DNA of 54,443 bases, taken from IMG/VR virus record IMGVR_UViG_2579778982_000031. The stretch is one strand, 5' to 3'. Positions 3,801 to 54,443 of the stretch are shown in pieces. A model generated the notes under the pieces. It ran no database searches, was not told the origin of the DNA, and saw only the letters and a list, made by a program, of their open reading frames with translations. The stretch is from a virus. Its lineage: Duplodnaviria; Heunggongvirae; Uroviricota; Caudoviricetes. The position numbers and the translations under genes are program-made. Within the stretch, counting starts at the first letter, position 1, and every line of letters begins with the position of its first letter.

Positions 3801-4796
3801 GTGACCGTGAGAGCACTACTGACCCCTGAAATTGCCCCGCGTATGGGGATCGTATTATTCAGGCCTGGTTCAGAGCTGATGCCCCTGTTTATGCAGGGGC
3901 GTGTCCTGCTGGAGCCTGAGCCGGAACGTTATTCATCTTTTGCCAGTGGTGCCGTTCCGGCGGCATCACAACCACTGGCGGATGATCCTGCCGTTCGGGC
4001 CGTGTTCCGTAATGAGGCAGTGATCCGTCGTGCTGGTGGCGTGGAATGTCTTGAAAGCTGGTTACTTCGTGAAAAAGGCTGTCAGTGGCCTCATTCCGAC
4101 TGGCACAGCGAGAACATGACCACAATGCGACACGCTCCGGGCGCAATCCGTCTGTGCTGGCACTGCGATAACCAGCTGCGCGATCAGTTCACGGAACGGC
4201 TGGAATCAATGGCAACGGATAACTGTGCCCGCTGGGTGTTGTCTGTCGTGCGTCGGGATCTCGGTTTTGATGACAGTCACGTTGTGACAATGCCGGAACT
4301 GTGCTGGTGGCTGGTTCGTAATGACCTGGCGGATGCCTTACCGGAAAGCGCAGCCCGTAAGGCACTGAGATTACCGAAGCCTGTTGTGCCGTCTGTCACC
4401 CGGGAAAGTGACCTTGTGCCTTCGGTTCCTGCCACCAGCATCATCCAGGATAAAGCGAAAAAGGTGCTGGCGCTGAAAGTGGATCCGGAGTCGCCGGAGT
4501 CTTTTATGTTACGTCCCAAACGTCGCCGCTGGGTTAACGAAAAGTACACGCGCTGGGTTAAGACGCAGCCGTGTGCATGTTGTGGAAAGCCTGCAGATGA
4601 TCCCCACCACCTGATAGGCCACGGTCAGGGTGGAATGGGTACAAAAGCGCATGACCTCTTCGTGCTGCCTTTGTGCAGAAAGCATCACGACGAGCTGCAT
4701 GCGGATACCGTGGTATTTGAAGAAAAGTATGGCTCTCAGTTGGAGCTGATATTTCGTTTTATCGATCGTGCGCTGGCAATTGGCGTGCTGGCCTGA
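3801..4796 (+). CDS. DUF968 protein (YdfU-like) with C-terminal Cys/His cluster
   Basis: C-terminal CxCCGKP...HHLIGHG...CRKHHDELH cluster; sits just upstream of Q as ydfU does in Qin-type prophages. GTG start at 3801 is uncertain. Confidence 0.55.
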   Translation: MTVRALLTPEIAPRMGIVLFRPGSELMPLFMQGRVLLEPEPERYSSFASGAVPAASQPLADDPAVRAVFRNEAVIRRAGGVECLESWLLREKGCQWPHSDWHSENMTTMRHAPGAIRLCWHCDNQLRDQFTERLESMATDNCARWVLSVVRRDLGFDDSHVVTMPELCWWLVRNDLADALPESAARKALRLPKPVVPSVTRESDLVPSVPATSIIQDKAKKVLALKVDPESPESFMLRPKRRRWVNEKYTRWVKTQPCACCGKPADDPHHLIGHGQGGMGTKAHDLFVLPLCRKHHDELHADTVVFEEKYGSQLELIFRFIDRALAIGVLA

Positions 4797-35448: not shown

Positions 35449-36663
35449 GTGAAACTCAATGCCCGTCAAATAGACACAGCCAAGCCAAAAGAGAAGGCTT
35501 ACAAGCTGACCGATGGTGGCGGTTTGTATCTCTTGGTAAAACCTAATGGAGGTAAATACTGGCGACTTAAATATCGTGTAGCTGGTAAAGAGAAGCTATT
35601 GGCACTAGGTGTGTATCCTGAGGTTACTCTAGCCGATGCTCGGGCAAAACGTGAAGATGCGAAAAGAGGTATCGCTGGTGGTATCGATCCGATGGAAGCG
35701 AAACGAGAGGAAAAGATTGCCCGGGAAACGCAGTTAAACAACACCTTCAAAGATATTGCCCTTGAGTGGCACAGCAGCAAATTAAAAAAATGGTCTGATG
35801 GTTATGCTTCAGACATCCTCGAAGCCTTCAACAAAGATGTGTTCCCTTACATTGGCAAAAAACCCATCGCCGAAATCAAACCACTTGAACTTCTGAATGT
35901 GCTGCGTCGCATCGAGGGGCGCGGTGCTACAGAAAAAGCCAAAAAAGTGAGGCAACGGTGCGGGGAAGTTTTCCGCTATGCAATAGTCACTGGTCGCGCA
36001 GAGTATAACCCTGCACCAGACCTTACTAGCGCGATGCAAGGCCATGAATCTAATCATTACCCTTTCCTTACAGCCAAAGAATTACCTGATTTTTTCAAGG
36101 CATTGTCCAGTTACTCAGGAAGCGCATTGGTTGTTATGGCGGCTCGTCTACTGATTATCACCGGCTTGCGGACTGGCGAACTACGTGGCGCATTATGGGA
36201 TGAAATTGATTTCAACAAGGCTATCTGGGAGATACCCGCTTCACGTATGAAAATGCGGCGGCCTCATATTGTGCCATTGTCTGAGCAGGCTCTTTCGCTT
36301 ATTGGGAAGATTAGAGAAATAACAGGCAATTACCCTCTTATGTTTCCCGGGCGCAATGATCCAAGGAAAACAATGAGCGAGGCCAGCATAAACCAAGTGT
36401 TTAAGCGCATTGGCTACGCTGGACGTGTAACTGGTCATGGGTTCCGGCACACTATGAGTACGATTTTGCATGAGCAGGGCTATAACACCGCGTGGATAGA
36501 AACGCAGCTCGCTCACGTTGATAAGAACTCAATTCGTGGCACATACAACCATGCGCAATATCTGGATGGAAGGCGGGAGATGCTTCAATGGTATGCCGAC
36601 TATATGGATTCTCTCGAGCATGGCGGAAATGTGGTGCATATGGTGTTTGAAAAACACGCATGA
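35449..36663 (+). CDS. int: Tyrosine integrase, P4-like
   Basis: N-terminal DUF4102-type arm-binding region (LTDGGGLYLLVKPNGGKYWRLKYR); catalytic box GHGFRHT...; next to a tRNA 3' fragment; GTG start after GGAGGT. Confidence 0.85.
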   Translation: MKLNARQIDTAKPKEKAYKLTDGGGLYLLVKPNGGKYWRLKYRVAGKEKLLALGVYPEVTLADARAKREDAKRGIAGGIDPMEAKREEKIARETQLNNTFKDIALEWHSSKLKKWSDGYASDILEAFNKDVFPYIGKKPIAEIKPLELLNVLRRIEGRGATEKAKKVRQRCGEVFRYAIVTGRAEYNPAPDLTSAMQGHESNHYPFLTAKELPDFFKALSSYSGSALVVMAARLLIITGLRTGELRGALWDEIDFNKAIWEIPASRMKMRRPHIVPLSEQALSLIGKIREITGNYPLMFPGRNDPRKTMSEASINQVFKRIGYAGRVTGHGFRHTMSTILHEQGYNTAWIETQLAHVDKNSIRGTYNHAQYLDGRREMLQWYADYMDSLEHGGNVVHMVFEKHA

Positions 36664-37701: not shown

Positions 37702-38535
37702 ATGAACATCGAAAAAAGCAGATTAATTTCTGAGGCTGCCCCTCATCTGAACGCCTCTCTGGGCACAATTAACGGTAATGAATTTGCCGCAATTGTCCCG
37801 GTTATTCCTGGTCATATCGGTGGGCGTGAAACCAATATTGTTAGCGCAAAAGCGTTACACAAAGCGTTGGGCGTGGGAAAAGACTTCTCTACATGGATCA
37901 CTGATCGCATCTCTGAATATGACTTCACCATTGGGCACGATTACTCAGTCCATAAAACAATTTCCCCAAATTTGGGGAAAAGCCCGAATGGCGCGGCTTA
38001 CAGCAAGATTAAGCAGTCTGGCAGACCCGGCAAAGACTATCTGTTAAGTGTCGGAATGGCGAAAGAACTGGCAATGATCGAACGCAATGATCAGGGTCGC
38101 GCTATCCGTCGTTATTTCATCCAGTGCGAGGAAGAATTACAGCGTAGCGTGCCTGAAATCGCCGCCCGCTATCGTCGCCAGCTAAAAGCCCGTATTAGTG
38201 CCGCAAACAACTTTAAGCCAATGTGCGATGCGCTGAATATGGCCCGTGCCGAGCAGGGGAAAACGACGCAGCAACACCACTACACAAACGAGAGCAATAT
38301 GATTTCTCGTATCGTTCTTGGTGGGCTAACTGCTAAGCAGTGGGCGCGGATAAATGGCTATTCTGGCGAACCTCGCGACCATATGAACGCAGAACAGCTT
38401 GAGCACCTCTCATATCTCGAAAGCACCAATATCACGTTAATTGATATGGGCATGGAATATGAGCAGCGCAAAGGAGAACTCACCCGCCTGTCGCAACGCT
38501 GGCTCGCCAAGCGTCTGGAGGCGGTCCATGTTTAA
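37702..38535 (+). CDS. Phage antirepressor-like protein (AntA/KilAC-like)
   Basis: N-terminal region resembles AntA-type antirepressor domains (NGNEFAAIVPVIPGHIGG...VSAKALHKALGV); assignment tentative. Confidence 0.45.
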   Translation: MNIEKSRLISEAAPHLNASLGTINGNEFAAIVPVIPGHIGGRETNIVSAKALHKALGVGKDFSTWITDRISEYDFTIGHDYSVHKTISPNLGKSPNGAAYSKIKQSGRPGKDYLLSVGMAKELAMIERNDQGRAIRRYFIQCEEELQRSVPEIAARYRRQLKARISAANNFKPMCDALNMARAEQGKTTQQHHYTNESNMISRIVLGGLTAKQWARINGYSGEPRDHMNAEQLEHLSYLESTNITLIDMGMEYEQRKGELTRLSQRWLAKRLEAVHV

Positions 38536-38703: not shown

Positions 38704-39771
38704 ATGCTAACCGTCCAGAAGAAGATATTTTCACTGGCTGGTATGTCGCCAAAATCCAGCAATATGACAGCAAAGTCTGGCATTAATACAGCATATACAA
38801 GCAAAGTTTATCATTTTCTGGTGGTAGGAGCGGATGCCTTAACTATGTCAGAAATTACGGTCGATGGTGTTAGCGTTGAGAAGGTCGGCGGCTGCGCCAG
38901 AGAATTTCTGGTCGTAGATGGCTTTCTCTGCTCGCGTAGTGACTCCACAAAAACCTTCGTCCACACGCGCGACGTTAACGAAATGAGCGCGATGTATTGT
39001 GCATCTGGTGCTTCCAATAGTGAGTTTTCGGAGTCCATAAAAAAGAGCTTGCCGTTATGCGGCAACACGGTTTATGGTTATAAGGCACCTCATAAAACGG
39101 GTGCCGGGATTGGCGTCCTGAAAATTCTGAAGGCGACATATGACGCGCCGAGCGTCTTTTTTTATGTCGTAGGTCTGACTCACCCATTTTTTGGGCGTTG
39201 GTGTATAATCCAGCGCCTTTGTCAATCAATGGTGGCTCAGGCGGGGGCTTCTTCGGAAGCGCCGGTATCCTTCAGAGCCGGTTACGCCAACCCTGTCTGG
39301 GCTACCACCAGCGAAATTGGCGTTTCCGGTGGTAGCGTAACCTGCTATCTGAAGGAGGCTGCCACATGCTGGCTACTACCCCTACCCAAAAACCGCAATT
39401 TATCTGGATTATCGCCGCAGTTCGCCGCGATTGCCCGACAATTACCGCCAAAATTCATCATATTGCTGCCGAGTCTGAACGCGATGCTCGCCGTTCTCTG
39501 GTGCGCGATCACGTCTGCTTTTTTGCTGGTCGTATCCGCATGGAGGTGGCACATGATTAAAACCTACGATGTGCATATGGATCCCCTCGAACGCACAAGC
39601 CAGATCATCACACTGACAGAAGTGATTAACGACATTCTGGTGAGCAACTCTCCCTCACGAGACGAAAGACTGAAGGCGTTACTCGCGATATTGGATCTCG
39701 CCGTTCGTGACGTTCATTTCCTGCTGGAAGGTGGCGAAATGCCAGGAAAAACGGGGGCAACCAATGAATAA
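38704..39771 (+). CDS. Hypothetical protein; gene structure ambiguous
   Basis: 355-aa ORF whose middle looks non-protein-like; a 64-aa ORF (39366-39560, RBS AGGAGG) in another frame and a 72-aa in-frame C-terminal ORF from 39553 (RBS GGAGGT) may be the real genes. Confidence 0.3.
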
Positions 39772-41383: not shown

Positions 41384-41747
41384 AAATGCAGAAATGGCGC
41401 TTAGCTCCGCAATCGGAGAGCAGGTGGCAAAGATTGCTGGTGCTGTGTGGATTCATAACCTTCATTCTACTGGTGAAGAGAAAATGGCAATTCAGACGCC
41501 AGAGGGACGCACCATTACTACATCTCTGAAGCCGTCAGATGTTTGTGATCTGATTTGCGCATTCATGTACCCAGCAATGAGGACTGTCCACGGCGATAAG
41601 TGGAAACTTGCGACAACCGCTGAATTTGATATGTGGCTAAACAATGATGGCATGCTGACTGATTACGGAATAACCAAGTGGCAGATGCTGGTTAGCCATA
41701 TCGCAAACGCTATAGACCACGTGGGGTACGGTGATGCGAAACATTGA
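41376..41747 (+). CDS. Hypothetical protein
   Basis: 123-aa ORF overlapping the primase start. Confidence 0.45.
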   Translation: MRENAEMALSSAIGEQVAKIAGAVWIHNLHSTGEEKMAIQTPEGRTITTSLKPSDVCDLICAFMYPAMRTVHGDKWKLATTAEFDMWLNNDGMLTDYGITKWQMLVSHIANAIDHVGYGDAKH

Positions 41748-44490
41748 TCTTATCCGTCAGGTTATCAGTGCGTCTGAAAACAACTGGCCTCATGTGCTGG
41801 GCTGCCTGAACATAAATGTCCCTGACTCTCCGCGCCGTCATGCTCCCTGCCCTGCATGTGGGGGCAAAGATCGATTCCGGTTCGATGACAACGGGCGCGG
41901 TAGCTTCATCTGTAATCAGTGCGGCGCTGGTGATGGGCTGGATTTAATTAAACGCGTAAATAACTGCGACACAACAGAGGCGGCGCTTCTTGCCGCTGAT
42001 GTTCTGGGTATTGATTACCGGACAACGGAAACACCAGAAGCCACCAGCCAGAAACGGGAACAACTGGAAACCGAGCGCCAGCGACGCGAACAGGAGCGCC
42101 TGAAAAGGGCAGAGAAGGACGAACAACAAAGACGGGATACGTTTTCCCGTCAGTTTGATGACATGCGCAGAAAGGCTGTAAACGGCAAATCTGATTATCT
42201 GGTTGCGAAAGGGGTAGGTGATTTTACATTCCCCGTGTTGCCCGATGGATCTCTGTTGCTGGCGCTGGTGGATAAATCCGGCGCAGTCACAGCAGCACAG
42301 ACTATTACCTCACATGGTGAAAAAAGACTCCTGACAGGTTCAGCAAAGCGGGGGGCATATCACGCCATAAACGCACCAGAAACAACACAGAGCATCTTAA
42401 TCGCAGAAGGGCTGGCAACGGCATTATCTGCCCATTTAATTCGTCCAGAGGCGCTGACAGTGGCGGCGATTGATGCCGGGAACCTGTTATATGTCGCCCA
42501 GGTACTGCGGGATAAATATCCATCAGCACAAATCATCATTGCTGCGGATAACGACCACAGCGAAGGAAGACAAAACACGGGGAGAATAGCAGCAGAAAAA
42601 GCAGCTTTATCTGTTTCTGGATGGGTGGCATTACCCCCGACAGATCACAAAGCAGACTGGAATGATTACCACCAAAAACACGGCATTAAATGCGCCACAG
42701 AAGCGTTCAATAAGTCAATGTACCAACCACAGGGTAATGGCGTGAAACAGGAGCCACAGACCATTGAGGGAAGCGATTTTAAGGTTATGGATACCGACCC
42801 ACTGAAACCAAGAATAGAAAGCCGCGAGGATGGTATTTATTGGGTATCTCCGAGAGCTGACAGCCAGAGTGGAGAAATCATCAATAACGAAAGCTGGTTA
42901 TGTTCTCCGTTAAGCGTTATCGGTACTGGCAGAGACGATAAAGACCAGTATCTCATTCTTCGCTGGCTGTCGTTTGGTTCTGAAACGCCGACAACCGCTG
43001 CCATTCCACTGGCTGATATTGGTGAACGTGAAGGATGGCGCACACTTAAAGCTGGTGGGGTAAATGTCACGACCAAAAGCAGCCTCAGAGCAATACTGGC
43101 AGACTGGCTACAACGCAGTGGCTCTCGTGAATTGTGGCGTGTTGCTCATGCCACTGGCTGGCAATGCGGAGCGTACATCATGCCTGATGGGGAAATCATC
43201 GGAACACCTGAAAATCCTGTGCTGTTCAGCGGGAGAAGCTCAGCCGCAGCCGGATATACCGTCTCAGGGAGCGCGAAAAGCTGGCGTGATAACGTGGCGC
43301 GTCTGGCCTTTGGTAACTATTCAATGATGACCGGGATCGGCGCAGCACTGGCAGCGCCATTGATTGGGCTGGTGGGCGCTGACGGGTTCGGCATTCATTT
43401 CTATGAGCAGTCGAGCGCAGGTAAGACCACCACGGCAAACGTGGCGAGCAGCTTATACGGCAACCCTGATTTACTGCGGCTGACGTGGTACGGAACCGCG
43501 CTGGGGCTGGCAAATGAAGCCGCCGCCCACAATGACGGACTAATGCCGCTTGATGAAGTTGGTCAGGGCGCTGATCCTGTCAGTGTTTCACAGTCTGCCT
43601 ATGCGTTATTTAACGGTGTAGGGAAACTGCAAGGCGCTAAAGATGGTGGAAACCGGGATCTAAAACGCTGGCGTACAGTGGCAATCAGCACTGGAGAAAT
43701 GGATTTAGAAACATTTATCGCTACTTCCGGGCGAAAAACCAAAGCCGGGCAACTGGTGCGACTGCTGAATATTCCGTTGAGTAAAGCAGTACGCTTTCAC
43801 GATTACCAGAACGGAAAACAGCACGCAGACGCACTGAAAGACGCTTACCAGCATCACCACGGCGCAGCCGGGCGTGAGTGGATTAAATGGCTGGCAGACC
43901 ACCAGCAACAGGCAATTAAAACTGTTCGTGACTGCGAAAGCAGATGGAGAAGTCTGATCCCATCCGATTATGGTGAGCAGGTTCACCGTGTAGCCGCGCG
44001 ATTTGCCATTCTGGAGGCCGCATTGCTGTTAGGCGAGGTTGTAACAGGCTGGGATGCTCAGACATGCCGTGATGCGATACAGCACAGCTATAACGCATGG
44101 TTGCGCGAGTTCGGCACAGGTAACAAAGAACATCAGCAGATTATTGAACAAACGGAGGCATTTCTTAATGCCTATGGGCTTAGCCGTTTTGCACCATTTC
44201 CATACAGCCCGGCAGATTTGCCCATCAAAGATTTGGCCGGATACCGTCAGCGTGGAGAACATGACGAAAGCCCAATGATTTTCTACACATTCCCGGCCAC
44301 ATTTGAAAAGGAGATCGCATGTGGTTTCAACGCAAAACAGTTTGCTGAAGTGTTGAAAAAAGCCGGGATGCTAACCCCACCAAACAGCGGTCGTGGATAC
44401 CAAAGAAAATCACCACGTATTCAGGGACGACAAATAAACGTTTATGTACTCAATTACCAGCCAGGAGATTATAACTCATCTGAAGAATGA
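41734..44490 (+). CDS. Primase-helicase (P4 alpha-like; zinc ribbon + TOPRIM + P-loop NTPase)
   Basis: Zinc ribbon CPACGG...CNQCG; TOPRIM-like ILIAEGLATA and AADNDH; Walker A GIHFYEQSSAGKTTTAN; followed directly by an iteron array. Confidence 0.8.
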   Translation: MRNIDLIRQVISASENNWPHVLGCLNINVPDSPRRHAPCPACGGKDRFRFDDNGRGSFICNQCGAGDGLDLIKRVNNCDTTEAALLAADVLGIDYRTTETPEATSQKREQLETERQRREQERLKRAEKDEQQRRDTFSRQFDDMRRKAVNGKSDYLVAKGVGDFTFPVLPDGSLLLALVDKSGAVTAAQTITSHGEKRLLTGSAKRGAYHAINAPETTQSILIAEGLATALSAHLIRPEALTVAAIDAGNLLYVAQVLRDKYPSAQIIIAADNDHSEGRQNTGRIAAEKAALSVSGWVALPPTDHKADWNDYHQKHGIKCATEAFNKSMYQPQGNGVKQEPQTIEGSDFKVMDTDPLKPRIESREDGIYWVSPRADSQSGEIINNESWLCSPLSVIGTGRDDKDQYLILRWLSFGSETPTTAAIPLADIGEREGWRTLKAGGVNVTTKSSLRAILADWLQRSGSRELWRVAHATGWQCGAYIMPDGEIIGTPENPVLFSGRSSAAAGYTVSGSAKSWRDNVARLAFGNYSMMTGIGAALAAPLIGLVGADGFGIHFYEQSSAGKTTTANVASSLYGNPDLLRLTWYGTALGLANEAAAHNDGLMPLDEVGQGADPVSVSQSAYALFNGVGKLQGAKDGGNRDLKRWRTVAISTGEMDLETFIATSGRKTKAGQLVRLLNIPLSKAVRFHDYQNGKQHADALKDAYQHHHGAAGREWIKWLADHQQQAIKTVRDCESRWRSLIPSDYGEQVHRVAARFAILEAALLLGEVVTGWDAQTCRDAIQHSYNAWLREFGTGNKEHQQIIEQTEAFLNAYGLSRFAPFPYSPADLPIKDLAGYRQRGEHDESPMIFYTFPATFEKEIACGFNAKQFAEVLKKAGMLTPPNSGRGYQRKSPRIQGRQINVYVLNYQPGDYNSSEE

Positions 44491-45261: not shown

Positions 45262-45723
45262 ATGGAACTAAAATTTATTGATAACCCTGTGCGATTACAG
45301 GCCTTTCTTAACGATCCTGGCAATACCGAAAATATTGTTGAGCCGGGGCACACGTACTACATCAAGCCTGATGCGGTATATCTCGGCATCTACGAAGGAT
45401 TGGTGCTGGCTGGCGTTCATGAAGTGCGTAACTTCTGGCATAGCGTTGTTGAATGCCATGCGGTGTATGACCCCGGATTCCGTGGTGAATATGCACTGCA
45501 AGGGCATCGACTATTCTGCAAATGGCTTCTCGAAAACTCACCATTCCTTAACAGCATCACTATGGTTCCTGACACCACGAAATACGGACGGGCAATTATC
45601 CGTTTGCTTGGCGCTACCCGTGTTGGTCACCTTGATGATGCTTATATCAGATGTGGTAAACCCGTCGGCGTAACGCTTTATCAGTTAACTCGGCAACAAT
45701 ATAAGGAATTCAGCGAATGTTAA
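45262..45723 (+). CDS. Hypothetical protein (first gene of cargo cassette)
   Basis: 153 aa, start overlapped by the next gene; no motif recognised. Confidence 0.45.
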   Translation: MELKFIDNPVRLQAFLNDPGNTENIVEPGHTYYIKPDAVYLGIYEGLVLAGVHEVRNFWHSVVECHAVYDPGFRGEYALQGHRLFCKWLLENSPFLNSITMVPDTTKYGRAIIRLLGATRVGHLDDAYIRCGKPVGVTLYQLTRQQYKEFSEC

Positions 45724-46394
45724 TTACCCATATAGCTCATAAACATCTCAATCGTGCCGTATACGAAAAAGGCGGTGATGGTGGTGCCTCTAAAGCTCAG
45801 GCGAAGGCCCAGCAGCAGGCAATTGATTTGCAGCGCGAGCAGTGGAATACGGTGATGAATAATCTCAAGCCGTATGCAGAAGTCGGATTGCCTGCTTTAC
45901 AACAACTACAAGGACTGATGACTCTGGAAGGGCAGAATAAAGCCGCGAATGATTTCTTTGGTTCTGGTTTATATAAAACACAGGCAGATCAGGCCCGTTA
46001 TCAGAACCTTGTCTCAGCAGAAGCTACCGGGGGGCTTGGCTCAACAGCTACCAGTAACCAGTTATCTTCCATTGCGCCCATGCTTTATAACAATTGGCTT
46101 AGTGGGCAAATGCAAAATTATGGAAACCTGCTAAATGTCGGGATGAATGCGGCATCAGGGCAGGCAACGGCAGGGCAAAACTACGCCAATAATACCGGAC
46201 AACTCTTGCAGGGGCTTGGCGCTATTCGTGCAGGTCAGGCGCAGCAGCCATCCAGTCTTGCGCGTGGTATTGGTGGGGCAGCATCAGGCGCTTTAGCGGG
46301 TGCGCAACTTGGTTCCGTTGTTCCTGGAATAGGTACTGCGGCAGGCGCTATTGGTGGTGGGCTTATTGGTCTTGTTGGGGGGCTTGGATTCTAA
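45717..46394 (+). CDS. Hypothetical Gly/Ala/Gln-rich protein with hydrophobic glycine-zipper C-terminus
   Basis: 225 aa; C-terminal GIGTAAGAIGGGLIGLVGGLGF; coupled to flanking genes. Confidence 0.45.
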   Translation: MLITHIAHKHLNRAVYEKGGDGGASKAQAKAQQQAIDLQREQWNTVMNNLKPYAEVGLPALQQLQGLMTLEGQNKAANDFFGSGLYKTQADQARYQNLVSAEATGGLGSTATSNQLSSIAPMLYNNWLSGQMQNYGNLLNVGMNAASGQATAGQNYANNTGQLLQGLGAIRAGQAQQPSSLARGIGGAASGALAGAQLGSVVPGIGTAAGAIGGGLIGLVGGLGF

Positions 46395-47713
46395 TGGCGA
46401 CATGGCAACTTGGCGGGCTGCCTAGCATGGCACCGCAAAATGATAATGCTCCTCGTTCTTCCGTTCCTCAGCCTGTGCAGTATCAGCAGCAGCCAAACGT
46501 AGGTTTAATGGCGCTACAGGGGCTAAGAGGCGTTGCTGAGATTAATCAGCAGGCGCAAATTTCCCAGCAGCTAAAAGAATATCAGGCACAGTTGGGTAGT
46601 GCGGTAGCTAATAATGATCGTGTTGGCGTGCAGAAGTTAATGGCCCAGTATCCCCAGTTTATGGCTGATTCTCAAAAACAGATGGGATTCATTGATGCTG
46701 AGCAAAATCGGCAGACCGCTGACGCTGCCATGAATCTGCGTCTTGCGTCACAAACTGGAGATCCACTGACCATGCAGAAGGCCATTCAGCAGGCAAATCC
46801 AGTATTACAGCGATTTGGTCTTCCTGCTGAAGAGGTTTATCAGTCTTGGCAGAATGACCCACAGGAATTCAACAGAATCACTGACCTCATCCACCTCCAT
46901 GCTGATCCAAATAGTTACTTTAGTGTTCAAGAGAAGCAGCAAGGGCAGAGTATTGCACAGCAGAACGCAGATACATCTGCATATAATGCTCAGGTTAATG
47001 CGGAACAGGGTAATCGGCGTCTCGATATGGAGCAGTTCAAAGTCCTATCCGATAACCAGCTACGCACGAGAGAAATGGTTCTGAAAGCACGACTTGGACG
47101 TGCTCAAAATGACATCGAGAGAGACAAGCTCAATGCTGAACTGAGCAAGGTACAGCAGGCGAAAGTGGAGAAGATGAACGATAAAATTAATACTGTTGCA
47201 GGTAACATCGACTCCTTGAACTCTGCGCTTGAAGTGGGTCATGAACTGGCGGGAATTGTAGGGAAACATCCTTCGGCCGTTACCCGTTCGCAGAACTATA
47301 ACCCCCTGACGCTGGGGTTTGGATTCCTTCCTGATGTAGCAGAAGACACACGAAGCCTACGCGCCAAAGCTGATGAATACAACCTAAAGGTTATTCTGCC
47401 TAGCCTCAAAGGGACTTTTGGCTCTAACCCAACCGAAGGGGAAAGGGCTGCCCTTATGCAATCTCAAAATGGCATTAAGTCAGCAACCAGCAATGAGGCA
47501 TTTTTGCGAGAGTTGAATAAAGCGCAGGACGTAATTATTCGAATGCAGAAACGACAGATTGCCGGGCTCGGTATTCCTGTAACCAAATCTAAGGACGAAG
47601 AAACTGATACTAAAATGCTGTTGCAGGATCCTTCTCTGGTTAAGGATTATGTGACCGCACATGGCTATCTGCCGGAAAGTTACTATCAGGCAAAACTTAA
47701 GGGATGGCAATGA
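46394..47713 (+). CDS. Hypothetical Gln-rich coiled-coil protein
   Basis: 439 aa, strongly helical and Gln/Ala-rich; ATG overlaps the previous stop. Confidence 0.45.
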   Translation: MATWQLGGLPSMAPQNDNAPRSSVPQPVQYQQQPNVGLMALQGLRGVAEINQQAQISQQLKEYQAQLGSAVANNDRVGVQKLMAQYPQFMADSQKQMGFIDAEQNRQTADAAMNLRLASQTGDPLTMQKAIQQANPVLQRFGLPAEEVYQSWQNDPQEFNRITDLIHLHADPNSYFSVQEKQQGQSIAQQNADTSAYNAQVNAEQGNRRLDMEQFKVLSDNQLRTREMVLKARLGRAQNDIERDKLNAELSKVQQAKVEKMNDKINTVAGNIDSLNSALEVGHELAGIVGKHPSAVTRSQNYNPLTLGFGFLPDVAEDTRSLRAKADEYNLKVILPSLKGTFGSNPTEGERAALMQSQNGIKSATSNEAFLRELNKAQDVIIRMQKRQIAGLGIPVTKSKDEETDTKMLLQDPSLVKDYVTAHGYLPESYYQAKLKGWQ

Positions 47714-50430
47714 TGGCACAACTGACAGAAAAACAGAAAGCCTATTCCCGTCATCTCGATGAAAAATATGGTTTCCCATCAGGGACGATGGAAACATTAG
47801 TTGGCAATGAATCTAGTGGTAACGGAAGTGCCGAGTCACCGAAAGGAGCTAGAGGATTTGCTCAACTGATGCCCTCAGTAATGAGTGATGCTGGTTATCG
47901 TGGAACAGATCCGCGCTCACTGCCATTTGAAAAGCAAATGGATATCGCAGCAAACCATCTCAATAAAGGAATGAAGCGATTTGGTGATATAGGTATGGCA
48001 TTGGCTGGGTATAATTCTGGCTATGCTCGTATTAATGCCGTAAGAAACGGTAAATCTACACTGCCAGATGAAACGGCTAATTACGTAAGTAAATTTGCAG
48101 ATGCCGGAATAATCCCTGATGACAGTGAAATCTTGCAGTTTGCACAAACCAGTCAACATCGCAATCTTCAGCAGCCTGACTACTCAGAGCTTGATAAAGA
48201 AATCTCTCAGGTGGGAGATATTTCTGCATGGGAAGCAAAACGTCAGCAATTTAAGAACATAGAAGCAGGACTACCAACAGCCAGTTCATGGGAGCAGAAA
48301 AGAGCTCATTTTCTCGCCGATGAAAATGCCGGGGAACCGCAGCAGCAAGTAGCCAAGTCTAACCTTAATCCTGAGATGGAATATCTTTCGCCAGGACTGA
48401 AAGCTGCGCCAGAGCAGATGGCCAGAGGGATTGCTAATATACCGTTTGATGTAATGGACGCAGGCGTGGGGGTAGTCAATGCGGCGCAATCAGCCGGAGC
48501 ATGGGCAGCTCAGAAGCTTGGTGTGGGTGATGGTACATACACGCCCATATCACCTGTCTTTCGCCCAGTAGACCAACCTACAGATCCATACGCGCAGGCT
48601 GGTGAGCAGCTAGCACCTTACCTTATTACAGGATTAGGTGCAGGAAAGGCAGCTACCGCAGCTTCTTCAGTTGCCAACGCTCCACGTGCTGAACGTGCGG
48701 CCACAAAGGTGGCTAGTATGTTGGCAGAAAACCTGCCAGGTACATTGGTGAACGCCCAAAAGAACGGGCAGATCAGCCCAGAAGACCTAGCAAAAGAGAC
48801 AGGTATTGGCCTAGCAGGATCGCTAGGAGCACGCGCTTTAATAAAGAGCGGACAGACAGCCAGTGACGTAATGCGAGATGTATTGCGGAGTAATACAAAT
48901 CAATCAAGCTATGTGTTAGGGGCAGCAAATACTCTGGAAACCGCCAATGATGTATCGAAAGCAGCGCGTTCTGCCGTAGGCCGAGAGCATATCGCATCGC
49001 AGGCATCAAACGTCAGAGATGATGTCGCTAAGGCGGCGAAAATCACTGGTATTAATATCAACACCCTGACGCCTGGAATGCGCTCAGGTAGTCGTGGAAT
49101 TGCCCAAGCAGAAGGTGTTCTGGCATCAACTCCTGGGAATGTTCAGGATGCTCACCTTACGGCCTTCAATGAAATATCCTCAAAGTTGAATAAGCAGTTG
49201 TCTGATTTCGGTGCTGAGTCTGGAAGCGCATCAGAAAAAAGCGCAGCAATTAAAGAGCGCATTATCGCGAGCCTCAGTGATATGAAAACAGCAGAGAATA
49301 TGGCATGGGCAGAACTGCGAAGCACGATGCCACGCGAAAGGATGAAAATGAGTAATGGGATGGCTGTCGTCCAAGCAGAAAAAGCAGCCAATGTTCCACT
49401 CAGCCCGGAGATGAAACAGTTTCAGGCTGCCAATAACCAAGGTGGCGGCATAACCTTCGACGGGATGAAGGCATGGCGTGCTAAGTTTGCTGATGCTGAA
49501 CAAGCAAACACCCGGGCAGGTAAGGCCAATGCCGCCCGGGTTGCCGGAGAAATGCGCAGAGCTATCACTGATGACATGCGCATCATGGCTGAAAAAGGAA
49601 ACTTCCTCACAGAATGGCAGAAAGCTAACGATCTCTCTAAAAGTTACATTATCGCCAAACAAAATGCCGAATCTGTTTTTGGTCGAGATCTCGCATCAGA
49701 CGCTATGGTAAGAAAAGGTGCCGATACGCTTAAGGCATCCGCAAACACTGGAACGGGAGCTTTTCACCGTCTTATCTCCGCGCTGCCGGAAGCAGAACGC
49801 CAACCAGCAATAGCATCTATTCTTCAGCATGCTGTGGCGCAGGGAGAGAAGGGAGGAATCGGTGAAGAGTCTGGTATCCAGTATTTTGCCAAGCTCATGA
49901 CCCAGCAGAATGTAAACGCCATCAGTCGTCATGCGCCAGATCTCGGTAGAATGATGAAAGAGTTCGGTGTACTCGCTAAAGCCAGCACCAGACCGCAGCG
50001 ATACGTAGAGCGCACGGGAAGAACAACTGAGGCTCTCAAAACGCTCGATTCAGGCCTTCCAAAGATCGTCGGCGTGATTATGAACGGAGTTCAACAGTCA
50101 GGTGCGATCGCTGGAGGCTTTGGCGGTGGTGTAATTGGTTCGATTAGTGGTTTGGTTGCTGGTGGCGCGCTGAGAAATACTGTGGCTAAGATTGGGGCGA
50201 CAAGAAGTGGTCGATATGCGATAGAGAAAGCCGTTCAGGAAGCTACAAAAGCAGTGCGCGCAGGGGCATCACCAGCAGCGATCGCCGCAGCAGAGAAACG
50301 ATTTTCGGCCAATAAAATTGCCATGAAAGCAATTCGTGATGCCGTTGGGGCTGAAGAATTCGTGAAACTGACAAGGGCCGGGATTGTAGCTACCCTCAGT
50401 GGCATGAAAGATGTTAGCGAATGGGAATAG
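47704..50430 (+). CDS. Large protein with N-terminal soluble lytic transglycosylase (SLT) domain
   Basis: SLT motifs ESSGNGSAESPKGARGFAQLMP and AGYNSGYARIN in the first ~130 aa; the remaining ~780 aa are Ala-rich helical with a Gly-rich hydrophobic patch near the C-terminus. Confidence 0.6.
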   Translation: MAMMAQLTEKQKAYSRHLDEKYGFPSGTMETLVGNESSGNGSAESPKGARGFAQLMPSVMSDAGYRGTDPRSLPFEKQMDIAANHLNKGMKRFGDIGMALAGYNSGYARINAVRNGKSTLPDETANYVSKFADAGIIPDDSEILQFAQTSQHRNLQQPDYSELDKEISQVGDISAWEAKRQQFKNIEAGLPTASSWEQKRAHFLADENAGEPQQQVAKSNLNPEMEYLSPGLKAAPEQMARGIANIPFDVMDAGVGVVNAAQSAGAWAAQKLGVGDGTYTPISPVFRPVDQPTDPYAQAGEQLAPYLITGLGAGKAATAASSVANAPRAERAATKVASMLAENLPGTLVNAQKNGQISPEDLAKETGIGLAGSLGARALIKSGQTASDVMRDVLRSNTNQSSYVLGAANTLETANDVSKAARSAVGREHIASQASNVRDDVAKAAKITGININTLTPGMRSGSRGIAQAEGVLASTPGNVQDAHLTAFNEISSKLNKQLSDFGAESGSASEKSAAIKERIIASLSDMKTAENMAWAELRSTMPRERMKMSNGMAVVQAEKAANVPLSPEMKQFQAANNQGGGITFDGMKAWRAKFADAEQANTRAGKANAARVAGEMRRAITDDMRIMAEKGNFLTEWQKANDLSKSYIIAKQNAESVFGRDLASDAMVRKGADTLKASANTGTGAFHRLISALPEAERQPAIASILQHAVAQGEKGGIGEESGIQYFAKLMTQQNVNAISRHAPDLGRMMKEFGVLAKASTRPQRYVERTGRTTEALKTLDSGLPKIVGVIMNGVQQSGAIAGGFGGGVIGSISGLVAGGALRNTVAKIGATRSGRYAIEKAVQEATKAVRAGASPAAIAAAEKRFSANKIAMKAIRDAVGAEEFVKLTRAGIVATLSGMKDVSEWE

Positions 50431-50580
50431 ACGCTCTAACTAACAAAACCATAATAGCCAAGGACGGCATACTGATATTGAGCCAACTATCAAAATTCCA
50501 TATCACATTACGAGCCTGTGGCTTACATTCGCTTACAGTGATGATAATTTATAACCACGCAATTCTTAGGTGAGATTATC

Positions 50581-51279
50581 ATGATTAAAAATCTTCTTTT
50601 AATATTATCCCTGTCATTATTGGCTGGATGCGTACAAAAACCGTTAGTAACGGTCAATGCTTTATCTTCCGGGCAATCTGTCGGTAAGAAGTTCTTGATC
50701 ATCCCCGCAAGCCAAGAACTTTGGAACACCAAACAGATTGAATACACTCAAATAGCTACGGTAGTAGCCGCCAGTTTATCAAGCCAAGGATATACACAAG
50801 TTAAAGATGAAAAATTGGCTGACCAGGTAATTCTCTTGAACTTTTTGAGAAGCGGGGCCATTTCAAATACTCGTAATGTAACCATCCCAATATACGGGCA
50901 AACTGGTGTGAGCTCAGCAACAACGTACGGAAACTCGAACACCACGTTCAATAGTTATGGTGGTGGCTACGGTACAGCTAATACCACTGGAACGGCAACA
51001 ACAGTTTATACGCCTACTTATGGAATTACTGGCGCGTATAACACAACTGTGACGGACACGTTCTACGGCGCAGGGGTGATACTCCAGTCGTTTGATGCCA
51101 AGGCCTATCTCAATAATAGGCAGATTAATATGTTATGGAAAGTTGGTAGCTCAGTCGTCTCGCAACAGTCTGATGGAATTGCTGATTACAAGGGGTTGGC
51201 GAGAATAGCCGCTAGCTATGCCGGGAAAAATACAGAAGGTGATATAACTTTTAATGTTGACCCTAAAGCACCAAATTAA
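50581..51279 (+). CDS. Lipoprotein, Thr/Gly/Tyr-rich
   Basis: Signal peptide with lipobox LLAGC; low GC; central Thr/Gly/Tyr-rich repeats. Confidence 0.6.
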   Translation: MIKNLLLILSLSLLAGCVQKPLVTVNALSSGQSVGKKFLIIPASQELWNTKQIEYTQIATVVAASLSSQGYTQVKDEKLADQVILLNFLRSGAISNTRNVTIPIYGQTGVSSATTYGNSNTTFNSYGGGYGTANTTGTATTVYTPTYGITGAYNTTVTDTFYGAGVILQSFDAKAYLNNRQINMLWKVGSSVVSQQSDGIADYKGLARIAASYAGKNTEGDITFNVDPKAPN

Positions 51280-52138
51280 CTAATAAGCCCGGTACGCCGG
51301 GCATTTTGCCCCCTATTATTCATGAATCGCTTTTTCTAGAAGGTATGCGACAAACGTTAAGTGACATTGCCTACACATTCGGGGCGGGATTTCAAATCCG
51401 CTCCCAGTTGATGGGGCCGTTACAGTACGCGCATATCCGCTTTATGTGAAACAGGAAGATTTTTCTGATATCACTGCCACAGCAAAACACCAATTTCGAG
51501 ACAAGTACGCGCGCGAGGGGTATCAGTTGCAAAAAATTTTGCAACTACGTCCGACCAATACACACACGATGGCGGGGGATACCATAAAACTGTTCTCTAC
51601 ATGAGACAGAGTGGTGGTGATGTGTTGATTATCGGCCTATATGCGCACAGGACGCGCTATGACAATGTTTTATGCGGGTACACCAATCACATGTATCTGG
51701 TGTGATAAATCGCGTTACATGACCTCTCATGTTGTGCTGGTGGTTATCACGACGTTCTGAATCTGGCTTTTGTCTGATATTTTGCGACAAGTACGCGCGC
51801 GTAACATCGAAATTATCGGATGGCGTATGTTGCTGGCAAGATAAAGTCGGCGTAATACAAAGGCGTTACTTGATAGCAGCAAGATTACAACAATGGTTGT
51901 TGAATTTGAGCGATGTAAGGAATTGATTTAGGGAGGCGCTGATGGCTAAAAAGTTCCACTACCAGCGGATGAATGCGCCAGCGATGGCCGTTTGGTAGTA
52001 AAAGAGGAGCCATTCCTCAATCAGTTGAATACATTATGCCAACTAAATGGGTGGGGGCACTGTGTGGGTATTCAGCGGTGACGGTATTTTTTAAGCCAAG
52101 GACTATCCGTAGCAGGGGGACTCATTTTGAAATATTTA

Positions 52139-52576
52139 TCATATGTAACTTATTATTTTAGATAAAGATTTCCAGTTAAAGAAAAAAGTTATCATTGATA
52201 TAATCAAATATGCCCCTGCGAGTAGCAGGGCATAATAATCCAGAGGCAGATTGCTGACAACAGGGGCAAACATCGAGATCATTGCTAATAGGCAGGCTGT
52301 GATCAGCGTAGTTCCTGTATCAAAAAGCCCCTCAATAATGCCTTTTAGTACTCCGTTACTTTTTAGAGCGCCTACAATTCCCTTTGAACTATCAAAGCTA
52401 CTTAGCATGGTGACTGATGCCAAAACAAAACCAAAGAGAACTCCAGAAATAGTTGAAAGAGCACCAGCAGCCGAAATGACAGCATTGTGATCTAGGTCGT
52501 GTAAAAAATGGGCACCAGCAATAGCCATAGCTAGAGCAAACAATGACTTGGCAGCAAACAATTTCCGAGAACTCAT
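52139..52576 (-). CDS. Small four-TM membrane protein (RexB-like architecture)
   Basis: 145 aa with four hydrophobic helices; 12 bp downstream of the 361-aa gene on the same strand. Confidence 0.5.
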   Translation of the reverse strand: MSSRKLFAAKSLFALAMAIAGAHFLHDLDHNAVISAAGALSTISGVLFGFVLASVTMLSSFDSSKGIVGALKSNGVLKGIIEGLFDTGTTLITACLLAMISMFAPVVSNLPLDYYALLLAGAYLIISMITFFFNWKSLSKIISYI

Positions 52577-52588
52577 AATGTATTCCTG

Positions 52589-53674
52589 TTACGTTTGACT
52601 AACCAAATAGTACTGGGTTAGATACCTAAGGTTGTCATTCTTTGCTTGTAGCATAGCATTTTTAACGTCAGTATCGGTCGGGTACCCATCTGCTTGGATA
52701 GGCACCATCTTCTTTACCGTAAGAACTTCGTCTACAAGACTTTTCTTCTTTTTATCGCCCTGAGCAACAACATTTGCTTTCTCAAAAGTTAAACGACCAT
52801 CACCACCAGGGAACTTTTCTAGCATCTCCTTAAGGCTTTTTTTAACGTCATCCTCAAGCCATCCCTTTGCTTTTCTTTTTAATGGAGCATGTCCGCGTAA
52901 CGAAATAGTCAGGTGGCTTGAACTGGTGCCTCTGATCATCTCAATCATCTGATTCGCGAACATTCCATCGAGTTGATACTGTGCGGCATTGAAGTTTCTT
53001 GGGATGGCCACAGAAATCTCGCAGCTTCTTAGATTGGATCCAGTTTCGAGTAGTTCTTTGATGCTTTCTTCTTTCCAAATGGCTTCAAAAGAAACAGGGA
53101 CTCCGCGATCACTGGAGTTGAAAAGAAGGAAGGCTAAGTCACTATGGCGTGGACCTAAATGATTTAAAGACAATACTAGAATGTCTGTCTGAGGATAATA
53201 AATAAAGTATGTACGTTCTGAAAGAGTCTTTGCCCCGGCTAGAGGGATTTTCTCTTCCACCCACTCTTTATCTGTAATATATGCCAGTGTTGCGCTTTTT
53301 CTTCTTCGAGACATGAATCCGAAGTAGGAGCCATCCTCGGGTGAGATGTCTAGAAAATGAATTTTAAGTTCTCTTTCACCAAAGTCTGCATAGTGGGTCA
53401 TCTTGAAGTCTTTAGAACACCGATCATAGAGATTTTTAAAGGCCTCTGCGGTTAACCCCTTGTTACTAGTGCGAATATTCTCAGAGCTTGTGTAAAAGCC
53501 CACCCTTACAGATTTCAAACTTTGATCTTTTGGTGCCACAGTCATTTGAGCTCCATTGTACTCTGCGATAGTTTTTGCACACCTTGAAATCAAAATCTCC
53601 ATGTCAGTCACGAGAAAATAACTATGGATGAAACCCATCAAAGGCATTGAATACAGGTGGCTTTTGAGAATCAT
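52589..53674 (-). CDS. Hypothetical cytoplasmic protein (RexA-like position)
   Basis: 361 aa, AT-rich codon usage, no TM segment, no motif recognised; first gene of a two-gene reverse-strand operon. Confidence 0.5.
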   Translation of the reverse strand: MILKSHLYSMPLMGFIHSYFLVTDMEILISRCAKTIAEYNGAQMTVAPKDQSLKSVRVGFYTSSENIRTSNKGLTAEAFKNLYDRCSKDFKMTHYADFGERELKIHFLDISPEDGSYFGFMSRRRKSATLAYITDKEWVEEKIPLAGAKTLSERTYFIYYPQTDILVLSLNHLGPRHSDLAFLLFNSSDRGVPVSFEAIWKEESIKELLETGSNLRSCEISVAIPRNFNAAQYQLDGMFANQMIEMIRGTSSSHLTISLRGHAPLKRKAKGWLEDDVKKSLKEMLEKFPGGDGRLTFEKANVVAQGDKKKKSLVDEVLTVKKMVPIQADGYPTDTDVKNAMLQAKNDNLRYLTQYYLVSQT

Positions 53675-54161: not shown

Positions 54162-54443
54162 ATGATAAGGGACAGGAAAGCTGAAGAGCTGGAGTCAAAA
54201 GGGCTATACCGGAGAGCTGCCGCACGATGGATGGAAGTCATGCTGTTATGCAGCGAGGACGATGATCGGGAATGGATAAAGCGCCGCCGTGAAACGTGTC
54301 TGGAGAACGTGAAGCGCCCGCCCGTGAAGGTTGAGGAATTTGGCGACCTGCATAAAGCTGTTACCGAAACGCAACACCGCATGGGGATAGCGCAACCGAA
54401 CGGTAACGCCTTCCGGTTAAATGGCGGCAAGAGGCAAAGGTAG
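54162..54443 (+). CDS. PerC/ANR-family regulator-like protein
   Basis: AEELESKGLYRRAAARWMEVM motif, paralogous to the gene at 1132-1620; ends in TAG at the window edge. Confidence 0.55.
   Translation: MIRDRKAEELESKGLYRRAAARWMEVMLLCSEDDDREWIKRRRETCLENVKRPPVKVEEFGDLHKAVTETQHRMGIAQPNGNAFRLNGGKRQR

Follow-up and report, generated by a model that had tools for sequence, protein, structure and literature searches.

What do the repeated GC-rich boxes do in the apparently gene-free stretch at positions 51280-52138 of the virus record IMGVR_UViG_2579778982_000031? The record, whose full 54,443 nucleotides are called the window here, is Escherichia coli chromosome, and from 35.4 kb to the window end (54.4 kb) it holds what looks like an integrated phage satellite of the P4-like kind. 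An earlier reading of the letters alone (the original prediction) had suggested that the stretch could be a regulatory region, a small RNA (sRNA) locus or a recombination site. We found that the functionally coherent unit is narrower, namely a block at 51381-51810 that contains short co-oriented copies (~20-37 nt each) of the segment in which phage small-terminase (terS) genes hold the pac site, one of the P22 gene 3 type and two or three of the Sf6 gene 1 type, the latter being the GC-rich boxes. The homology of these units to the pac-bearing terS segments is held with high confidence. That the block is a packaging signal, in which pac-site mimics taken from helper terS genes would recruit the terminase of a P22-like helper, is the explanation we favour on balance, at somewhat better than even chances, from the sequence comparisons presented below.

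Boxes, repeats and coding state of the stretch

The stretch lies between two genes that end at 51279 (plus strand) and 52139 (minus strand), and the largest open reading frames (ORFs) within it encode 34-65 aa. Homologous copies carry 1-bp indels inside these short ORFs, and a six-frame tblastn search with the block returned only the block's own copies. The original prediction had seen no convincing ORF here, and this was borne out; a protein-coding gene in the block was rejected on the small ORFs (at most 65 aa), the indels in homologues and the different frames that the boxes occupy in relatives. No conserved gene spanning the stretch was found, and the repeats are present in relatives.

The GC-rich motif had been placed at ~51497 and ~51786. 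In the 54-kb window the exact 16-mer GACAAGTACGCGCGCG indeed occurs in two copies, at 51500-51515 (box 1) and 51786-51801 (box 2), both on the plus strand, while the sole further match at ≤3 mismatches, at 4539, stands alone with 3 mismatches and is unrelated; none of 100 dinucleotide shuffles reached three matches. Between 51493-51515 and 51779-51801 the repeat can be followed over 23 nt, with 91% identity, and a second short repeat, TTTTTCTGATAT and TTTGTCTGATAT, is located 22-33 nt upstream of each box. The surroundings, described as AT-rich, are so only mildly, the GC content of the region being ~45%. The predicted perfect inverted repeat is present and perfect, with arms of 10 nt rather than 9 and a span of 51525-51546 rather than 51525-51544: AGTTGCAAAA-AA-TTTTGCAACT has arms that are 100% complementary around a 2-nt centre and starts 9 nt past box 1. 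This palindrome is restricted to copies of the 51381-51810 block (23 instances), its arms are conserved, and its A/T centre differs between copies, both in sequence and, by 1 nt, in length. It may serve DNA bending or the binding of an accessory protein beside box 1.

A conserved non-coding block beside a cargo hotspot

Among 5426 complete E. coli genomes, 545 (~10%) match the stretch, and the core common to them corresponds to query positions 102-531, that is 51381-51810, at 95-99% identity. The whole stretch 51280-52138 is found at 100% identity in 8 complete E. coli genomes, where it bears no annotation. Strains of the PK8276 or ABU 83972 kind, for example, carry the satellite as a whole. 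The right end of the core lies 7-10 nt past box 2, and the homology end-points among genomes fall at query 531, 567 or 701. On the left of the block the gene content varies between a lipoprotein gene and a minus-strand ORF of 130-146 aa; on its right, Abi, ImmA/IrrE or genes of unknown function are found. Because the flanking genes vary and indels break the short ORFs, the core is a conserved non-coding block, and it adjoins a cargo hotspot. The features of the block and its margins are as follows.

51287-51302, plus strand: GC hairpin GCCCGGTACGCCGGGC followed by ATTTTG, from the terminator scan; likely intrinsic terminator of the lipoprotein gene 50581-51279
51381-51810, plus strand: proposed packaging-signal region, 95-99% identical between elements with differing flanks
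51415-51437, plus strand: degenerate Sf6-type unit GCCGTTACAGTACGCGCATATCC (regular expression AC[AC]A?GTACGCG), conserved in all block copies
51455-51484, plus strand: P22-type pac-like unit GAAGATTTTTCTGATATCACTGCCACAGCA, 4 mismatches to the satellite P-type consensus
51491-51517, plus strand: Sf6-type unit of box 1, CAATTTCGAGACAAGTACGCGCGCGAG, holding the first 16-mer (51500-51515)
51525-51546, no strand: perfect 10-bp inverted repeat AGTTGCAAAA-aa-TTTTGCAACT
51769-51803, plus strand: half-unit TTTGTCTGATAT fused to the Sf6-type unit of box 2, ATTTTGCGACAAGTACGCGCGCGTA, holding the second 16-mer (51786-51801)
51811-52138, no strand: variable right part of the intergenic stretch, present only in a subset of genomes

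The unit of box 2 includes a 12-bp palindrome, TACGCGCGCGTA. The hairpin at 51287-51302 is outside the conserved block, query 1-101 being missing in most homologous copies, and the variable right part contains terminator-like hairpins for the convergent cargo genes at 52018-52004 and 51969-51955 on the minus strand. For GGGATTTCAAATCC, where the block begins on the left, a tRNA-like or att-site origin was considered but gained no support; there is no tRNA in the window. The blastn search of the 859-nt stretch against 50,697 phage genomes gave zero matches, because BLAST misses homology this short, which only motif scans brought out; a plasmid collection gave a single match, in a record that is a mislabelled chromosome.

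We also observed that in two genomes a lambdoid prophage is joined to the same block position, ~51693 (L015:6001 and L016:6001), between TATCTG and GTGATAAAT. The truncation points of the two prophages differ, one lying after a cro-like gene and the other inside rusA. That the end-point in the block is fixed while the partners differ hints that breakage or recombination may be favoured here.

Homology of the units to small-terminase genes

A motif scan of IMG/VR showed that in phage-sized contigs the box motif is coding sequence, ...FRWLAKHEDFRDKYAKATEARAD... or ...STVFRWLAKHEDFRDKYAKATEARADSIFEEIFEI..., and that the ORF with the motif is the Sf6 gp1 small terminase (TerS; PDB 4DYQ/3HEF, E = 9e-92; Pfam Sf6_terminase). 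The box corresponds to codons F56-A61 of Sf6 gene 1 (nt 166-183, TTTCGCGACAAGTACGCG), from which box 1 differs at a wobble base alone; these codons lie at the end of the TerS DNA-binding domain, and the boxes have the coding-sense orientation. The likeness of box 1 continues upstream, with GCAAAACAC against GCAAAGCAT in Sf6. When every 20-nt window of Sf6 gene 1 was compared with 77 satellites at ≤4 mismatches, a footprint scan that replaced the insensitive blastn-short, a single peak was obtained for windows starting at nt 161-168, with 21-37 matches versus a median of 1, and no other part of the gene was represented in these satellites. Leavitt and colleagues, in 2013, reportedly placed the Sf6 pac site within the gene 1 sequence coding for the DNA-binding domain.

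The P22 pac site is annotated at nt 4-25 of NC_002371.2 (GAAGATTTATCTGAAGTCGTTA), inside gene 3, the terS gene (PMC9611059). In the 54-kb window, 51455-51472 (GAAGATTTTTCTGATATC) is the sole match to the P22 pac 18-mer at ≤3 mismatches, agreeing at 15 of 18 positions where 0.02 matches are expected, and in a hand alignment 51455-51484 agrees with P22 pac and its flank at 25 of 37 positions. A fragment of a P22-type gene is also present in the satellite.

38851-38967, minus strand: P22-type small-terminase gene fragment, 39 codons, gp3 residues 87-125 (tblastn with gp3, E = 1e-11)

This fragment starts exactly at pac, nt 268 of terS being the first base of pac, and in 126 P22-like phages its counterpart is nt 268-375 of terS, with 68-78% amino acid identity. 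Among P22-like phages of E. coli, Dewey, Louie and IME10 have terS of the P22 type, and Sf6, HF4s and Huey terS of the Sf6 type. Its pac-like 30-mer GAAGGTTTTTGTGGAGTCACTACGCGAGCA (38958-38929, minus strand) agrees with P22 pac and its flank at 28 of 37 positions in a hand alignment. As a post hoc observation, the pac regions of P22 gene 3 (L214:1-40) and Sf6 gene 1 (L333:150-190) resemble each other in a bipartite manner, with GARGATTT, 10-12 nt and then TACGCGA; the proteins of the two genes are only ~12% identical.

The box family in related satellites

Eighty related loci were fetched via relatives of the satellite primase (52-100% identity). A family-wide motif, TTTYG-N-GACMAGTACGCG, was found, on the primase strand in every case, in many diverged satellites whose flanks cannot be aligned; its TTTYG part is invariant although it lies outside the search anchor. 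The sites in relatives are located downstream of the ejection genes, and also, in tandem sets of 1-3, at a distance of 100-300 nt ahead of isrK/C4, where they fall within a long 'Ash-family' ORF in different frames. The different frames and the tandem duplicates argue for selection on DNA and not on a peptide, and the boxes are therefore conserved at the DNA or RNA level. The predicted status of the boxes as meaningful cis-elements that recur in related elements was thereby confirmed by the motif search.

Across the 80 loci, Sf6-type units (≤3/21 mismatches) number 34 on the plus strand and 0 on the minus strand, and P22-type units (≤6/26 mismatches) 17 and 6, respectively; shuffled controls gave zero units of either type. 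Both types are often interleaved, 26-36 nt apart. All units of the 51381-51810 block are on the plus strand, and the terS gene fragment at 38851-38967 is inverted. The sister satellites L057, L058, L066 and L074 have an Sf6-family TerS of their own together with non-coding boxes; the window's element has no TerS gene. The small terminase of L058 (L058:15353-16096) is a 247-aa Sf6-family protein with an extra N-terminal extension of ~100 aa that is helix-turn-helix (HTH)-like, and in satellites of the L058 type an SLT protein and other virion-associated genes replace the gp14/7/20/16 module.

A proposed packaging signal and alternative explanations

From the homology, the conservation and orientation of the units, the non-coding state of the block and its satellite context, we infer TerS binding, cleavage and packaging in the following form. 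Once a P22-like helper has been induced or has infected the cell, the satellite would excise and replicate; a TerS ring of the helper would bind the units and TerL would cut nearby; and satellite concatemers would then be packed by the headful into helper capsids, along with the ejection proteins that the satellite encodes. P22-type ejection proteins are the only virion genes of the satellite, which points to a P22-like helper, and the window's element, which unlike the L058-type sisters encodes no TerS, would rely on the TerS of its helper.

Several observations weigh against a packaging signal. Pac function does not account for the conservation, within E. coli, of the ~220 nt that separate the boxes. 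One E. coli genome (L017) has a 53-bp deletion (L017:8120-8140, equal to window 51510-51562) that takes out the palindrome entirely, together with the tail of box 1. No phage terS allele identical to the P22-type units was found, and these units differ from P22 pac at 3/18 to 6/22 positions; one P22-type copy in the window is inverted; and at the thresholds used at least one unit was present in 28 of the 80 loci, many of which are truncated. Furthermore, the Sf6-type box is a presumed Sf6 pac site, after the location that Leavitt et al. reportedly gave in 2013.

The alternatives make different use of the same units. In P4, ori and crr are the origin and cis-replication loci, and the boxes could likewise form a replication origin or cis-replication region, as iterons for the satellite primase-helicase in arrays upstream of the immunity/primase operon and downstream. 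The direct repeats at two loci whose positions resemble ori and crr, the arrays that relatives have ahead of isrK/C4 and again past the end of the primase operon, and the A/T palindrome beside box 1 are all consistent with an origin, which we nevertheless regard as very unlikely: the same block (97% identical) occurs with two primases that share only the N-terminal Zn-ribbon/Toprim and have unrelated helicase/C-terminal parts (DUF927 versus DUF5906), the sequence has neither the P4 type I iteron TGTTCACC nor a DnaA box and lacks an AT-rich stretch for unwinding (AT ≤65% in any 40-nt window), and the iteron model does not predict repeats that are homologous to terS. A helper sensor or decoy, in which the units bind the helper TerS and serve mainly for regulation (a switch of the immunity promoter) or for titration of TerS, would account for the 1-3 units found 100-300 nt upstream of the isrK/C4 promoter in relatives and for copies in excess of what a single pac site needs. 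The main array in the window, however, is 12 kb from the immunity region and adjoins cargo genes, and no conserved promoter geometry is seen downstream of the boxes, and we consider this as the main role quite unlikely; the observations fit a sensor or decoy as they fit packaging, and the two roles are not exclusive of each other.

The units might also be non-functional debris, that is, remnants of terminase genes that stayed behind when satellite and helper recombined and are now decaying. A 117-nt terS fragment does exist at 38851-38967, the partial loss of box 1 is tolerated in L017, and the junctions in L015 and L016 mark a recombination-prone region; yet only the pac-homologous 20-37 nt have been kept, the rest of Sf6 gene 1 being absent from the footprint scan, the orientation is 34:0 with tandem duplication, and the units persist where the flanks cannot be aligned and hardly vary across hundreds of E. 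coli genomes. We give debris as little probability as an origin. The sRNA locus of the original prediction, a small protein, or targets of the C4 immunity RNA (like P4 seqA/seqC) would suit a conserved and unannotated stretch in an element that uses RNA-based immunity with repeated target sites, and can nearly be dismissed. The covariance-model scan gave no Rfam match in 50500-53000 at E ≤ 1, and in the whole window isrK and C4 only, 12 kb away; the folding energy of both strands of the core is ordinary (z = -1.8 and -1.3), in copies that differ by only 3-4%; the short ORFs carry 1-bp indels; and the loops of C4 covary with a ribosome-binding region while the boxes are constant. A classical regulatory operator and a classical recombination site, the other two proposals, are likewise not indicated, the boxes being homologous to a pac-bearing terS segment instead. 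The proposed pac site would, as the analysis points to, be a site acted on by a DNA enzyme, yet of a different kind from the one first suggested.

Returning to the packaging signal, one extension of it is tentative and, in our estimate, unlikely: the interleaved P22 gene 3-type and Sf6 gene 1-type units (~26-36 nt spacing) might be dual-specificity packaging signals for helpers with either TerS, the copies at the immunity promoter could add a TerS-sensing switch, the footprint would pin the Sf6-family pac to nt 161-187 of terS, and a bipartite P22/Sf6 pac motif would be revealed.

The integrated satellite

A Pfam scan of every non-overlapping ORF of at least 100 aa in 35.4-54.4 kb detected no capsid, tail or terminase genes in the element, and no ORF of the element gave a Pfam match to sid, psu or delta. 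Because the latter three were not found, the element is P4-like in immunity and replication only. Its features outside the block are listed below.

35449-36663, plus strand: tyrosine integrase (Pfam Phage_integrase, Arm-DNA-bind_3, Phage_int_M; RefSeq annotation of the identical region)
37702-38535: AntA-domain protein, also PADLOC candidate family PDC-S22 (E = 1e-10)
39085-39162, plus strand: isrK, Rfam above the gathering threshold (67.8 bits)
39225-39312, plus strand: C4 antisense RNA, Rfam above the gathering threshold (79.9 bits)
41731-44490, plus strand: primase-helicase with Zn-ribbon, Toprim and DUF927 (Pfam)
45262-50430, plus strand: P22-type ejection module with DUF2824 (gp14-like), P22_gp7, Inj_translocase (gp20) and a 908-aa SLT-domain protein at the gp16 position (Pfam, RefSeq names)
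50581-51279, plus strand: predicted lipoprotein, 232 aa, no family match, in a second variable slot left of the block
52139-53674, minus strand: two cargo ORFs of 145 aa and 361 aa in the variable slot adjoining the block, no Pfam or PADLOC match
54162-54443, plus strand: PerC-family regulator (Pfam PerC), conserved, right of the variable slot

The cargo ORFs at 52139-53674 are candidates for an undescribed defence system, because other elements hold Abi or ImmA/IrrE in the same slot. Coming after the ejection genes, the lipoprotein gene stands where P22-like phages have their superinfection-exclusion genes. Another Sf6-type box, the third, ATTTCGGGACAAGTACGCGCGCGCGTAGCACC, is located ~50 nt past the PerC stop at L001:21214, which corresponds to window ~54,490, just outside the window; it is present in thrW-locus elements and not in the dinD-locus elements L002-L004. 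The primase (41731-44490) is 83% identical to L002:2-2101 over the Zn-ribbon/Toprim part (aa 86-339) and unrelated thereafter (DUF927 versus DUF5906), a clean domain swap. Positions 1-35000 of the window belong to a separate tailed prophage with baseplate, tail-fibre and tail-fibre-assembly genes and a truncated invertase, and in the related genome PK8276 a retron Ec67-type reverse transcriptase (RT) and a DUF262 gene lie between the tailed prophage and the satellite.

The isrK/C4 region

isrK and C4 constitute the P4/P1-type RNA immunity region of the satellite. The Pfam Phage_ASH match in the 355-aa ORF at 38704-39771 (aa 124-232, window 39073-39400) coincides exactly with these two RNA genes, and an 'Ash-family protein' ORF as a real gene containing the boxes was rejected on that coincidence and on the change of frame of the boxes. 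The 'Ash protein' here is probably the translation of RNA genes, and the many 'Ash pseudogenes' reported in P4-like satellites in a 2026 paper (PMC13586616) may have the same cause. In 47 aligned loci, the loop of C4 hairpin 2 and the single-stranded joint that follows it covary with two sites just upstream of the start codon of the next gene, ~60-90 nt downstream, as exemplified by the C4 loop CCCGATAACG with AGTTATCGGAGG. The boxes were rejected as C4 targets of the P4 seqA/seqC kind because the C4 loops differ between satellites while the boxes stay constant. With this variation of the C4 loop the satellite family has a wide set of separate immunity specificities, comparable to P1 c4.

Comparison with known systems

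Like the 22-bp P22 pac in gene 3, the satellite units are asymmetric, and 51455-51484 and 38958-38929 align to pac and its 3' flank; P22 pac, however, lies inside terS, whereas the satellite copies are non-coding, outside terminase genes, several per element and changed at several positions. Compared with Sf6 gene 1, to nt 166-183 of which the boxes correspond in coding-sense orientation, the satellite copies have a (CG)n-AGG tail in place of AAGGCAAC of Sf6, keep no consistent frame and are repeated.

P4 shares its cos site with P2, and the P4 defence hotspot abuts cos (PMC9122126). The satellite resembles P4 in having an integrase, an RNA immunity of the C4/CI type and a large primase-helicase, and also in that the packaging signal would be the only sequence shared with the helper, with a variable cargo slot directly beside it. 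In contrast to P4, the proposed signal is of the pac type (headful) and not cos, pac-like units standing at the corresponding position, sid, psu and delta are lacking, the presumed helper is P22-like rather than P2-like, and ejection-protein genes are present. The direct repeats, which stand at two loci on either side of the replication operon, recall the iterons of P4 ori/crr but lack the TGTTCACC iteron, are uncoupled from the primase type and derive from terS.

The PLE satellite of Vibrio cholerae has a 14-bp mimic of the ICP1 pac that is needed for transduction (Boyd and Seed 2024, bioRxiv 10.1101/2024.04.22.590561), and both satellites thus contain a short copy of a helper pac sequence. 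The satellite and helper families are unrelated, though, and PLE uses one mimic with dedicated packaging proteins, whereas here arrays of two sequence flavours occur with no packaging protein. PICI/SaPI satellites encode a small terminase of their own (PMC10085698), as do, with an Sf6-family TerS and the same boxes, the sisters L057, L058, L066 and L074; the window's element differs from them in having no TerS gene. Pac mimicry by satellites is a strategy already known, and it is this satellite family that is undescribed in the searchable literature, in which we found no description of satellites with P22-type ejection genes.

Implications

Specific DNA binding of Sf6-family small terminases has been hard to show in vitro (PMC9611059), and if our explanation is true, the boxes would give access, at the level of sequence, to the recognition site of this family, which is poorly defined. 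With a packaging signal next to a cargo hotspot, what Rousset et al. observed for P2/P4 would hold for a second packaging system as well, one unrelated to the first. The satellites would then represent a lineage that parasitises P22-like podophages, one in which immunity and replication are of the P4 type and the ejection proteins are the satellites' own. Finally, if the boxes are functional pac mimics, they would explain the spread of a common E. coli island, one whose block is present in ~10% of complete genomes and which carries variable, probably defensive cargo without packaging genes.

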